NCBI RefSeq assembly: GCF_006345805.1
Contig: NC_043010.1
Location: 53,258,001 to 53,322,000 of the forward strand
Length of the DNA: 64,000 nt
Origin: Octopus sinensis
Lineage: Eukaryota
Direction of reading: 5' to 3'
The notes beneath the pieces were generated by a model, which did no database searches, was not told where the DNA came from, and was given only the letters and a program-made list of their open reading frames with translations. A program made the position numbers and the translations under genes. Below are positions 4,296-60,836 of the stretch, one piece after another. How positions within the stretch are numbered: the stretch's first letter is position 1; each line of letters opens with the position of its first letter.

Positions 4296-4505
4296 AGTCA
4301 ATCCAAACTTGAAAACACAATGAGGAGACACAACAACGTGAGGACGTGGAACAAGTATAGTGTTATTGGACGCTCAGGAAAGGAAAGAAATAAGGAGGAT
4401 TTAACGTTTCGAGCACAGCTCTTCGTCAGAAACATAGAAAAAGGAAAGGTTCAAGGAAGGGAAGACGGAGAAAGAAAATTGCCAACGGTATACACGCGGT
4501 CACAT
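4296..4505 (-). mobile_element. Microsatellite-embedded element with minimal hammerhead ribozyme motif (Penelope-like remnant)
   Basis: Minus strand 4429-4401 reads CTGACGA-A-GAGC-tgt-GCTC-GAAAC-GTT; homologous to 50041-50340. Confidence 0.65.
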
Positions 4506-5309
4506 GCACACGCGTATATATTTATATGTAAATTATACATGTGAGGATGTTAATGTAACATGTATTATATAACAAGCAGGATTATGAAACAGCTGTAAAA
4601 GATTGGAATAAACATCTATTTTCTCACCTCACTTCTCTTTTCACTTTTATTCATATAGGGACACATATAACTTCATACCTACATACATACAATCATAGAC
4701 ACATATGTGCATATGCGTGAGTGCGTGTGCATATGTGTATGTATGTGTGTGTGTGTGTGTGTGTGTGTGTGTGTGTGTGTGTGTGTTGTGTGTATGTGTA
4801 TGGAACATAGTGGGCGTATTCTCAATTTTCTTTTAGCCCATTTCGTTAATTTCCGATGTCAATAGAATGCGACATCGGGTCTAATAAACGAAGACTACAT
4901 CTCTGTTTCTCCACGACTACTGCATATGCGCTGCTTCTGAATGCTATGATTTATAGATTATGCCCGAGTAATATAAATATATATATATTATTATATATAT
5001 ATATAATATATATATATATATATATGTTTGTATAGATATCCATTTATATATATATATATATATATATATATATATATATTATATATATATATATATATAT
5101 ATATGTTTGTATAGATATCCATTTATATATATATACTTATATATTTTCACACACACACACGCACACTCTGTCTCATACATACACGCACGCACACACGAAT
5201 ATATATATTTAAATATATATAGCGCAAGTATCCTTAATCAAAATGCTACGATGCCTGCAAGTACTAAAACGTATCCAATGTGTTTATAGTGACAGAGAAT
5301 AATACTTAC

Positions 5310-5476
5310 CTTTAATGCTTCCTTATAACTTGTAAAACTTGTTCTGCAGAGCAGCACAGCTGTATCTAAATTCTTTAGAGTATAATGTTCAACGATTGAA
5401 TAGTAACAGATACATTTTATATTCCGAAAAATCTGGAGACAGCTGTGATAGTCTCCTTGCATGTTATAAGGAGCCG
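5310..5476 (-). CDS. Candidate coding exon, Cys-rich extracellular-loop-like ([55 protein letters not shown])
   Basis: Canonical splice acceptor and GTAAGT donor, 167 nt stop-free, non-repetitive sequence. Confidence 0.5.
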
Positions 5477-6227
5477 CTGAAATAAAACTTTGAGTATCAC
5501 AGATATATATATATATATATATATATGCATCTATATATGAATATATATATAGACATATATAAATATATATATGTATATATATATATATACAACAAATATA
5601 TATATATATATATATATATATATATATATATATATATGTATGCATGCGCATAAATATAAATACATACATATATCTTTATGTCTACATGTATGCATATATA
5701 TATATGTATATATAAGTCAAATAAGAAAATGGAGAGGATATACAATCGACAAACGTCAGCCAGTAAAAATTCAATTATATCTATTTATATGTGTGTGTAT
5801 ATGTATTCATGTGTTTGTGTGTGTGTGTGTGTGTGTGTGTGTATAGGAATTTAATAGGATATAAACATTGTAGTTTGCCTTAAAAAGCTCGTCCAAAGTT
5901 TTCAGTTAACAAATACTATCTATCATGCAGTTTGGTTGATATATCACTGGATATACATCTGCAATTCTGTGATATCATTAGAATATGTATACGAGAAATA
6001 GAAAATGGATTGAGTAAAACGTAGTTTCACTAGCAGAATCAAACCTGCCGCATTATATACTATGTATATTAAAAAATCATGTGATTATTATTATTATCAT
6101 CATCATTATTGTTATTATTATTATTATTATTATTATTATTATTATTATTATTATTATTATTATTATTTTCATTATTATTATTATTATTATTATTATTATT
6201 ATTATTTTTATTATTATTATTATTATT

Positions 6228-56170: not shown

Positions 56171-56588
56171 GGCTGTGTGCTAAGTAGCTTTCTTACCAAT
56201 CACATGTATCCGGGTTCCGTTCCACTGCGGGGCACCTTGGGCAAGTATCTTCTTCTACTATAGCCTCGGGCCGACCAAAGCGTTGTGAGTGGATTTGGTA
56301 GACGGAGACTGAAAGAAGCCCGTCGTGTATAATATATATATATATGTGTGTGTACGTGTGAGTGCGTGTTGTGTGTATGTATGTGGGGTTGTGTCTGTGT
56401 TTGTCCCTCCAACATCGCCTGACAACCGATGTTGATGTTTTTATATCCCCGTAACGAAACTGTTCGGCAAAAGCGTCCGATAGAATAAGTATTAGGTTAC
56501 AAAGAATAAGTCCTGGGTTCGATTTGCTCGACTAAAGGCGGTGCTCCATCATGGCCACAGTCAAATGACTGAAGAAATAAAAGAATAA
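56171..56588 (+). mobile_element. SINE family A
   Basis: Colinear with 38304-38720. Confidence 0.9.
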
Positions 56589-59500
56589 AAAATTCTATAT
56601 ATATATATAATATATATATATAATATATATATATATATATATCCAGATACACATATATTCATACATATATATATACATATATATATATATATATATATAA
56701 CATATATATATGTGTGTGTAGATGTCTGTATCGATATGTGAATGAGTGTGTGTGTGTGTCTGTTAATGTGTGTGTGCGTGTAAACGCTGTCCTTACGTTT
56801 CCGGACTACCAAATATTTATTCACAAGGGAATTGGTGCCACAAAAAAAGGAACTCGCCCACAGTTAAGTGCCGTGGATCGAACATAAGAACACGTTACAT
56901 CTTTCCCTCAGATATGTCGGTACGTCAGTAACATTATTCTAATCTTCTTGTTCTATTCTCTTTTCAAATATAACTCTTTTCAAATTTATATAAAAATGGA
57001 ACACCCATTTCATCGAGGGCAGAACATTGGAAAGCAAGAGTTTTGAACTGAAAATATAAATCCTCTTTAATTAATTGCTGCGAGGGTTTTGTACGACGCA
57101 CCAGCGAAGCTGCCAATGATATTCATATATGTATCATAAGATATATTATTATTACTTCATCGTGATATGATTTATTACGTATTATTACTAATATATATTA
57201 TTATCATATGTCTATAGTCATAAGTTATTAATATTTTATTTGTTATTTATATTATCGATTATATATATATATTATATATGTTCACATACATGGAAGTATA
57301 TATATATATATATACGAATTATTTATTAGCCTATATATGTTGGTTGTTTTAATATCGAATATGAATCAACGTGGCAACTTGGACTGCAATAAAATGGTCG
57401 TTGCAAATACAGTGACAATAAATTTTATTAGTGTTATTGTGGCGCTTATTATATTTTTTTGTTTATTATCGGTGCTCTTATCACACAAATTTGCATATGG
57501 ATACATATATATGTGTGTGTGTGTGTGTAAGTGTGTGTGTGTAAGTGTGTGTGTGTAAGTGTGTGTGTGTGTGTCTGTATGTGGGTGCTTATCATACTTA
57601 CATACATATATACTGTTTGCATATGTATATTATTAAAAATGATATAATATACATACGAACATATACATGCATGTATATAATATACATATATATATATATA
57701 TATATATATATATATATATATATATATATATATATATATATATATATATCATATATGTATTATACGTATATATATGTATATATACATATATTATATATAT
57801 ATATATATATACAATATTTATATATTTATATATATACATATTCACATGTGTGTTCCTTTATATATGTCTATATATATAAATGTATACGTGTATATGAATT
57901 ATATATAAATAAATATTTGTATGAATGTGTATATAATTGCATATGTCTATACGCATGTATGTAAGCTGTCAGACAATATATTTCATATAGCAAAACATAG
58001 ATATATGTATATGACTACATGTTGTTTCTCTTCCTCTCTATAACACATCTCTCTCCCTCCCTTTGTATCTCTCTCACCCTTCCTCTCTTTCTGTCTGTCT
58101 GCCTCTCTATTTCTCTCTCTCTCTCTCTCTGCTATACATATATATATATATATATATATAATATCAAGATATATTTATATATGTATATATATTCAAAGAT
58201 ATAGATATTATTTATATATATATATATATATATATTTAATATATATTCAAAGATATATATATATATGTATGTATATATACTCTAATTATTATTATACATA
58301 TATGGAAATGTTTACATATATATATATATATACATATATATATATATATATATACACATATATATATTATATATATATATATATATATAATAAGTGAGTG
58401 TGTATTGTTTATGTGTGCGTGTGTATGTGTGTGTATGTATGTATTTATATGTGATTGGGTTGCCACTGTGTACATATGTATGGTTCGAATGGAAATATGT
58501 AGTTTCCTGTAGACGTATCTAATTTCAATGTTCACTACAATATAAGCAGCGGGTGGCACTTATTATTATTAAGCGAGTAGAAATGACATATTTTGGCAGA
58601 GACCAAAAACAAGTTGACTTCCTTCGTATGTGATTTGCCAGGTTATTTCGTTGGTTCGTCTCTAATACTACATGTAACCGTCGTTGTTGCCGGTCTGGAC
58701 TGAAGCCACTTAAAACACGTATATACGTACATATACAAACGTGGCGGAATAATAGTGTAAGTACCAATATATATTAAGTTTATTACTGTAGATGTACGAG
58801 TTTTTAACAAAGCAACAGGCTGAACAGCAACTGTTGTTTTCATAGTAATAAATACCACCACCACCATGACCACTACCACTACTACTACTACTACTACTAC
58901 CACTGTGACAACAACAAAAATAATAGCAGTAACAGACAGGAAAGCAGTGCCACAGTAAATTTAATAAACGTGGTACAATGAAGAATGAGAAAACTTGCAC
59001 TACTATATACACTCACACGCACTCGCATATAGACCAAAAGACATACACACGCATATATATATATTTACATAAATATATATATATATATTATATATTACAT
59101 ATATATATATATATATATTATATATATATATATATATAAATATATATATATGTATATATATATATATTATATATATATATATATACATATATATATATAC
59201 ATATACGTGTGCCTGTGCGTACGTATGTATTTATCTGTATATGGATATGTACATGTATTTATAAAACTATATAATATATATATATATAAATTATAATATA
59301 CAGGTTCTATAGAATTCAAGCAGCGTATATATATATATATATATTGTGTGTGTGTGTGTTTGTATGAATGTACGTATATATGCTTATCTATTTATATTTT
59401 GCCAATTCTAGAGAGATTTAGACTCGGACACACTTGATTAAACGACCGACACAATTGTTTATAATGAAACATTTGATTAAATCGACCCAAGATCTTGACT

Positions 59501-59769
59501 CTTGTACATATTTTATTACTTTCGGGGTGATAAAATATAAAGCCATGTCCAGTGTGCCTTGAACTCTTAGCGTAAAGGTCTCTAACTAATTTCTATAAAA
59601 TATCTGTACTCTGTCACTTTTACTAGATTTCCCGCTTACCTACTTATAGGGCCCCCGTGGTGGTGTGTGCGCCTGTAAATACAACTACACAAACACGCAC
59701 ACACATACACACACACACATATATATATTATATATATATATAATAATATATATATATATATATATATAT

Positions 59770-60836
59770 ATTGATATAATAGTAAGACAACAAAAAATAT
59801 ATATATTGATAAAAATGGAAAGACAACAATGTGTAGGTATGCACATGCGCGCTTACACGAATACTAAGAACTTTTTTACCTCCTTATTTTACTCCCTCCC
59901 CTCACGTAGCAGTCATTCAAATAGCTCTTTTGTCTTAATATCCGTCAGCCATATAGTCATTACCCTTTGTATAATGGTCATTTCTCATAGCATTTTTCCG
60001 ATGGCCGGATAACTGAAGAGATGGCGCCGTGGGTTTCCACCTCGGCATCCGAAACTCGGACTCTTATCATGGCTACCGAATAATTGTCACATATTACATT
60101 TACAGATATATATATATATATATATTGATAAAAACGGTAAGATAACAAAAGACCTCGATATCATGTAAATAGAGGAATTTATCTGTAAATGTAATATGTG
60201 ACAATTATTCGGTAGCCATGATAAAACTCCGAGTTTCTGATGCCGATGTGGTAATCCACGTAGACATCTCTTCATTTATCCGGCTATCGGAAAAACACAA
60301 TAAAAAATGACCGTTATACAAAGGGAAATTACTGTGTGATTGACCGTTATGAAGACAAAAGAGCTATTCGAATGACCGCTAAGTAAGGGAGTAAAGTAAG
60401 GAGGTAAAAAGTCCATAGTATTCGCGTAAGCGCGCCTGTTCATACCTGCACATGTGCGCCCGCACACACACGTGCGTGCGCATATATTCATCCACCCTCA
60501 CTTGAAACACGTACGCATCCTCACTCGCATCCTTCGCCAAATGTATATGCATATACATATAAACCCACACAAACACGCGCACCATAAAGGTTCATACACA
60601 CGGTGCGCGCGTGTGTGTGTGTTTGTTTATATGTATAGGCATATACATTTGGCGAAGGATGCGAGTGAGCATGTGTACGTATTTCAAGTGAGAGTGGATG
60701 AATATATGCACACGCACGTATGTGTGCGGGCGCACATGTGTAGGTATGAACAGGCGCGCTTACGCGAATACTATGAACTATTTAGCCCCTTATTTAGCGG
60801 TCATTCGAATAGCTCTTTTGTCTAAATCACGGTCAA
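59770..60836. mobile_element. Two head-to-head hammerhead-bearing foldback elements (Penelope-like inverted terminal-repeat structure)
   Basis: 59829-60108 is inverted relative to 60181-60453, and 60340-60583 to 60602-60836; hammerheads at 60008-60068 (+) and 60280-60220 (-). Confidence 0.75.

Follow-up and report, generated by a model that had tools for sequence, protein, structure and literature searches.

A stretch of 64,000 nucleotides from the genome of Octopus sinensis (NC_043010.1, positions 53,258,001 to 53,322,000; hereafter the window) carries a series of small hammerhead ribozyme motifs dispersed between positions 4,296 and 60,836, and raises the question of what kind of element deposited them there. 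An earlier reading of the sequence (hereafter the original prediction) had attributed the motifs to an abundant set of non-autonomous, retrozyme-like relatives of Penelope-like elements (PLEs). Our analysis indicates that the motifs are very probably the 3' ends, or pseudo-long terminal repeats (pLTRs), of 5'-truncated PLE families of Hydra and Neptune type, each end bearing a minimal type I hammerhead, and that target-primed reverse transcription is the likely route by which these copies entered (TA)n tracts.

Hammerhead motifs and their repeat families

The seven predicted cores (at 4401, 23891, 50138, 51062, 54131, 55871 and 60008), the additional copy at 60220-60280 and the half core at 23025 are all present where they had been reported and on the reported strands, as are the palindromes described for stem III. 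A descriptor combining the core, a stem I of at least 4 pairs, a stem II of at least 2, a palindromic stem III and UH matched six sites in the window, whereas 200 dinucleotide shuffles gave 0.19 matches on average and never more than 2. This descriptor was broadened after the families had been seen, admitting U4C, A6U and U3:A8; a narrower version identified four sites, against 0.09 in the shuffles. The hammerhead motifs in the window are hence real and above chance level. Just three of the six matches correspond to predicted sites, and the remaining predicted sites are too decayed for the descriptor and were recognised through family homology. Five remnants had been overlooked, at 13126-13191 and 17092-17131 on the forward strand and at 22110-22175, 51900-51941 and 55307-55379 on the reverse strand, with those at 17092 and 55307 being intact. 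Their addition brings the total to 14 remnants and the density to approximately one per 4.6 kb, instead of the estimated one per 8 kb. Searches of the window against Rfam returned no match at gathering thresholds, and the weaker matches, 150 listed of 308, were TA-repeat artefacts. The window has a GC content of 34% and is rich in (TA)n.

The predicted sites map to at least seven families, rather than three: A1 (4401), A1b (50138), A2 (54131), A2b (23891), B (51062, 60008 and 60220), C (55871) and D (23025). The overlooked site at 17092 belongs to family E. The motif families of the window are repeats with hundreds to thousands of copies in the 2.72 Gb of genome searched. Exact patterns matched 679 times for A1, 1,274 times for C and 7,387 times for A2 plus A2b, with 0 matches for each of the reversed controls, and DNA searches yielded 966 candidates for A1b, 2,389 for B, 2,714 for A2b and 2,113 for D, totals that are first-look figures and not copy numbers. 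Two endonuclease queries returned 18,503 and 15,054 candidates genome-wide. Among the copies of these families the 3' ends are fixed and the 5' ends are ragged. At least ten further hammerhead families were met by chance in the flanks of the numbered genomic loci L009-L370, and the genome therefore holds many more PLE lineages.

Reading frames and insertion anatomy

The original prediction had proposed walking from individual copies to open reading frames (ORFs) encoding a reverse transcriptase (RT) and a GIY-YIG endonuclease (EN). Such walks reached these ORFs in five of the seven families, and the existence of these longer copies, together with the ragged 5' ends, leaves the proposed non-autonomous nature of the elements without support. 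Considering the eight core sites, linkage to an ORF is firm for six, weak for one (23891) and absent for one (4401). Hydra-clade ORFs are linked to 51062, 60008, 60220 and 55871, and Neptune-type ORFs to 50138 and 54131. Families B, C and A1b present RT and EN in a single ORF upstream of the hammerhead, and A2 and A2b present EN.

In family B, locus L054 contains an EN C-terminus about 1.1 kb upstream of the hammerhead, and in 21 of 30 loci retrieved with a Hydra-type EN query (the query locus counted) the match is followed after 0.24-1.18 kb by a B-type hammerhead region in the same orientation. The ORFs of this family bear the RWK, DKT and CxCX5C motifs, which are described as marks of the Hydra clade (PMC8557442, section 11). 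In L379, a member of a sister family with about 78% identity to B in the hammerhead region, 717 open codons are located between two direct hammerhead-bearing pLTRs, and an upstream direct pLTR was found in two of three long Hydra-type loci (L378 and L379), which establishes it for the sister family. This sister family is young, with dozens of equal-score matches, open frames of 717 codons, a short 3' untranslated region (UTR) and a U4C hammerhead (L137, L140, L145, L146, L150, L151 and L378-L380). Copies of family C chosen by an upstream 24-mer have more than 1.5 kb in common, and a Hydra-type ORF was detected on the same strand in five of nine extended loci, ending about 1.2 kb upstream in L338. 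The ORF is 41% identical to that of the B sister family and shows an RWK-like RWK and CxCX5C, with the DKT position falling on a frameshift in L338. A short non-autonomous element, as first suggested for family C, is ruled out by this shared upstream sequence and by the ORFs.

Among the A group, an alignment of 5,356 columns between A1b loci L232 and L236, at 85%, takes in RT, a CX4CxxC linker, GIY-YIG and, past a CA-rich, internally repetitive 3' UTR of 3.2 kb that is unusually long for a PLE, the hammerhead. ORF homology was detected in four of ten extended A1b loci; the Pfam matches to RVT_1 (E 0.003) and GIY-YIG (E 0.007) are each below curated cut-offs. A Neptune-type EN with 53-65% identity to that of A1b lies 0.77-0.94 kb upstream in 6 of 30 unbiased A2 copies, and weak GIY-YIG homology (30-34% identity) was found upstream in 4 of 25 A2b relatives. 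Family A1 shares 76% identity with the 3' end of A1b along approximately 300 nt and is likely of Neptune type. In family E, the Neptune-type ORFs reach as many as 850 open codons; an upstream direct pLTR is present in none of three loci and an inverted 5' copy in one. This family is very abundant, its best 150 EN matches being 93-100% identical (L092-L121, L376, L377 and L381). Both A1b and E show DKG and a CX2-5CxxC linker before GIY-YIG; the Neptune label for the A group and E is a putative assignment by motif, and Nematis has the same type of linker.

The 3' ends of the copies are closely associated with TA tracts. Among the ends found in 30 unbiased loci for each family, a TA tract was located within 14 nt in 20 of 26 cases for A1 and 23 of 24 for A2 (43 of 50 in all), against a background of 7.8% at random places. 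It is the ends of the elements that abut the microsatellite, 33-103 nt downstream of the cores, and not the cores themselves, as had been proposed. Two 3' ends, short and long, were observed in families B, C and D (16 short and 14 long among 30 copies of B), and A-group copies have a single type. Singles and inversions make up the unbiased samples drawn for C, A1 and A2, at 30 matches per family. Family C carries an inverted arm in 20 of 25 insertions, and 17 of the 18 insertions with both ends typed combine a long and a short end, none pairing long with long; sites 51062, 55871 and 23025 of the window are inverted insertions of this sort. In addition, the start of 23 of 30 family C matches lies no more than 22 nt from the core, and a 24-mer located 46 nt upstream has 110 exact matches, against the 1,274 of the core. 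The proposal that these motifs are minimal type I hammerheads of PLEs with microsatellite targeting is supported by these results.

Published work on PLEs suggests how such insertions could have arisen. The element EN would nick a TA tract, and reverse transcription would begin at one of two sites close to the RNA's 3' end. The two DNA strands would often use different start sites, giving rise to an inverted pair in which one end is long and the other short; the two 3' ends and the inversions fit the two start sites shown for the Anolis element (PMC11167929), and a one-sided tail is drawn in PMC8557442. Synthesis would mostly abort just past the hammerhead, which might adopt its active fold only as a dimer, via the palindromic stem III, or with an element protein, and its cleavage would be weak. 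Copies such as those of the window would have been dead on arrival and would now be decaying.

Catalytic cores and alternative explanations

Family alignments were made from sequence alone, and their cells count copies rather than events. Column and pair counts reveal a conserved core, stems I and II and a short palindromic stem III at the family level. The conservation anticipated for each family holds for the stems, yet the cores show family-wide deviations. Of 151 A-group sequences, 68 (the A2 lineages) have a U at position 6 and 36 (A1b) have a C at position 4; the latter is also present in 74 of 81 family C sequences and in 9 of 64 sequences (B sister family), and all 24 family E sequences have a U3:A8 core. 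Only 4401 has a fully canonical core among the predicted sites. The others present A6U (54131), U4C with a 2-bp stem II (55871), U4C with G17 (50138), A6U with G12A (23891), G12A (51062), a broken stem III (60008) and C3A (60220). Stem II of family C has 2 firm pairs only. The expected covariation was detected in part, with double-sided changes from one lineage to another in stem I of the A group (C-G 58, G-C 36 and G-U 41 of 151) and in stem II of families E (C-G 13 and U-A 11 of 24, compensatory between subfamilies, in a 2-bp stem) and D (G-C 25 and A-U 4 of 31). By prediction, a dimer gains 5-11 kcal/mol in stability over two monomers, with pairing via stem III in B, D, C and E, although such modelled energies are a weak argument in favour of dimers.

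The altered cores of several very abundant families would likely cut RNA poorly. U4C has been described as less active yet functional in a viroid, and A6C as slow (PMC3088659), and a U3:A8 core was previously reported in Schistosoma PLEs (PMC4209133). A literature search for A6U in the hammerhead catalytic core found no paper; surveys of PLE hammerhead variants lay outside its coverage, and A6U may be in print. The tolerance of these changes is unsurprising, given that PLE hammerheads cleave poorly in vitro and that the hammerhead of the Anolis element PAc, the cleavage of which is protein-assisted, is dispensable for insertion in vitro (PMC11167929). A bolder proposal, which we put forward tentatively and consider rather improbable, is that the genome constitutes a natural mutagenesis of the PLE hammerhead, in which A6U, U4C (in three lineages, two of them young) and U3:A8 would have spread with the stems and the stem III palindrome kept. 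Either A6U would then be a functional natural core not described before, rescued by the dimer or by a protein, or the fold would be retained for a non-catalytic job, which may be RNA pairing or the setting of start and stop sites for reverse transcription. If true, this would answer what PLE hammerheads are for, a matter that is still open in the published accounts (PMC8557442, PMC11167929).

Several observations weigh against the assignment of the motifs to truncated PLEs inserted in this manner. Upstream walks reached no ORF for A1 (4401), the longest copies of which end about 0.9 kb upstream in a CA-rich UTR, nor for D (23025), with copies ending within about 0.4 kb. The window itself holds no piece of a PLE ORF detectable by tblastn, and the linkage of B is by family homology and not by continuity. 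The Hydra-type ORFs have no Pfam match, and the Hydra and Neptune clade calls consequently rest on motifs and not on a tree. In the copies sampled from families B and C, double-sided pair changes are almost absent, and the minimum-energy dimer of A1 and A2 differs from the stem III dimer. The 5' ends of family C inverted arms scatter between -59 and +55 relative to the cleavage site without piling up there; 2 of 19 lie within 3 nt and are explained by stem I microhomology, and a genomic trace of cleavage in this family is unsupported. Lastly, in 24 of 29 unbiased A1 copies the 5' end lies 67-84 nt upstream of the core, inside a small hairpin or beside it, and a short non-autonomous master would give the same pattern.

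The clustered A1 ends and the lack of an ORF in the A1 and D walks are compatible with an alternative in which A1, and perhaps D, would be true non-autonomous elements of about 210 nt, moved in trans by the protein of a related PLE. We regard this as unlikely, given that the A1 5' ends spread over 17 nt and that at least four A1 copies (L301, L283, the second copy in L274 and L029) extend into a CA-rich UTR resembling that of the ORF-linked A1b; moreover, family C shows an even tighter 5' hotspot and yet has an ORF-bearing parent. Candidate causes for the A1 cluster (L272-L301) include an RT stall, TA/TG microhomology and a short master.

The presence of type I hammerheads within small non-coding repeats of an animal genome also recalls retrozymes, non-autonomous hammerhead repeats that spread via circular RNAs and are known from molluscs (PMC7229834). 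Retrozymes, however, are described as head-to-tail arrays of 150-450 bp with canonical hammerheads (PMC7229834), whereas the copies analysed here are dispersed singles or inverted pairs, with minimal cores and linked ORFs. The retrozyme-like component of the original prediction is hence largely refuted, and a retrozyme origin appears very improbable. The sole tandem array of the window, a young satellite at 45380-49460 with about 27 copies of a 151-bp unit that are 99-100% identical, contains no hammerhead core and has no Rfam match, and is ruled out as a retrozyme by the absence of the core. Chance matches of a short motif in AT-rich DNA, which the failure of most window copies to satisfy the strict descriptor and the lack of Rfam matches might suggest, can be dismissed with near certainty in view of the excess over shuffles, of the 679 to 7,387 exact matches against none for reversed controls and of a position and architecture equal to those of published Hydra hammerheads, the genome-wide counts and pair changes ruling chance out for the families, even if the single weak sites at 13126 and 51900 may be of chance origin.

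Remnants in the window and comparison with known systems

The A1 remnant (4296..4502, reverse strand) contains a canonical minimal hammerhead at 4399-4433, and its 3' end abuts a (TG)n/(TA)n tract. The A2b remnant (23826..24200, reverse strand) has its hammerhead at 23888-23923, with the family-wide A6U and with G12A in this copy. The hammerhead of the A1b remnant (50040..50382, reverse strand), at 50135-50169, shows the family-wide U4C, with G17 specific to this copy. The A2 remnant (54071..54266, forward strand) carries a hammerhead at 54131-54168 that is intact except for the family-wide A6U.

The remnants of families B, C and D illustrate the inverted configuration. The family D insertion (22860..23181, both strands) is composed of a short-ended arm at 22860-22947 on the reverse strand, with a half core at 22906-22925, and a long-tailed arm at 22995-23181 on the forward strand, with a half core at 23021-23040, each arm being cut within stem II. 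The predicted half core at 23025 is therefore genuine, but corresponds to the 3' half of a complete family hammerhead that is split at the inversion junction, on both strands. The long tail of family D (L207-L231) measures about 150 nt and is 98-99% identical among copies, and the stem II region of its hammerhead spans 54 nt. The family B stub (51025..51172, reverse strand) presents a short-ended arm with a hammerhead at 51062-51120, followed by an inverted long tail at 51121-51172, and is flanked by TA tracts on both sides. The family C stub (55838..56008, reverse strand) likewise presents a short-ended arm, with a U4C hammerhead at 55871-55908, followed by an inverted long tail at 55917-56008. 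A further family B insertion (59807..60105, forward strand) comprises an inverted tail piece, a 3' UTR, a hammerhead at 60008-60068 and a short end on (TA)n. It shares its TA tract with another family B insertion (60126..60836, reverse strand), which consists of a long-tailed arm (60126-60602), containing the C3A hammerhead at 60220-60280, and an inverted arm (60609-60836). The copy at 60220 had been regarded as the inverted partner of that at 60008. The two do lie on opposite strands, but, since they are oriented with their 3' ends towards each other, share 84% identity and have separate 5' inversions, they represent two insertions into one TA tract, and a single inverted element is ruled out.

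The family E remnant (17065..17252, forward strand) contains an intact hammerhead with a U3:A8 core at 17092-17131, and a remnant at 55176..55402 (reverse strand), ending on (TA)n, contains a canonical hammerhead at 55307-55379 with a 9-bp stem I and a 5-bp stem III. The site at 13126..13191 (forward strand) is a hammerhead-like motif in a diverged repeat, to which related stretches elsewhere are 69-73% identical, and that at 22110..22175 (reverse strand) is a decayed hammerhead in an element of another repeat family spanning approximately 21929-22216. The decayed hammerhead at 51900..51941 (reverse strand), the weakest of the added sites, is 76% identical over 72 nt to one in L283. Two further features were also observed. 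Tandem units of 184-207 bp at 13394-14157, with dispersed copies at 3990, 17874, 36662 and 62515, resemble a short interspersed nuclear element (SINE), presumably one of octopus type. A piece of open frame with C2H2-like motifs at 15868-16364 (reverse strand) presumably resembles the C-terminus of an ORF from a long interspersed nuclear element.

The window thus contains no separate non-autonomous system, but ordinary PLE debris from new families of a published kind. Literature on PLEs, octopus included, already covers hammerheads within the ends, insertion into (TA)n, inversions and tails. The genome is of practical use, in that it holds sister families differing at single core positions as well as young ones that retain open frames and two pLTRs, and the paired ends of thousands of insertions could serve to test twin priming from two start sites.

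Literature searches combining hammerhead, Penelope and octopus, or addressing ribozyme retrotransposons in cephalopods, found no survey of these families, and an annotation of octopus repeats from 2026 (PMC13282606) counts 31 Penelope-like families with recent activity and makes no mention of ribozymes in its main text. Metazoan non-LTR (long terminal repeat) retrozymes (PMC7229834) are alike in having a type I hammerhead in a short repeat, but their tandem arrays, canonical cores, circular RNAs and lack of an ORF do not fit the families described here. The Poseidon element PAc of Anolis (PMC11167929) is similar in its AT-rich target and in the two start sites that define an optional tail, and belongs to a different clade from these families. 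Neptune PLEs (PMC4209133, PMC8557442) share the DKG motif, the CX2-5CxxC linker before GIY-YIG and the occurrence mostly as single truncated copies, and their minimal core is alike in the extra base before stem II, the G10.1-C11.1 pair and the palindromic 15.2-16.2. The A2 and A2b families differ from them in A6U, and A1b in U4C and in its 3.2-kb CA-rich 3' UTR.

The closest resemblance of families B and C is to the Hydra-clade PLEs (PMC8557442), with their RWK, DKT and CxCX5C linker, C-terminal EN, (TA)n targets and hammerhead near the 3' end. The 3' UTR of B and C, however, is about 1 kb long and their tails measure approximately 55-70 nt, against the usual 30-40 bp, and the U4C of family C and of the young B sister family departs from the Hydra hammerheads as published. 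The pairing of long and short ends, counted here in family C, is only drawn or qualitative in the legend to Figure 2 of PMC8557442. The supplements to that work contain 25 other Hydra hammerheads of like build, as well as Hydra-1_Obim of Octopus bimaculoides, a (TA)n-targeted element with a hammerhead. Whether such families were already described had been left undecided; the kind was, down to this octopus element, and those of the window are new members. The core of family B starts as in Hydra-1_oBim, which has a different stem II and stem III from B and C, and the layout of stems I and III in family C is that of Hydra-2_aMil. The N-terminus of L379 matches Hydra-1_Obim at 28 of 44 residues, as aligned by eye.

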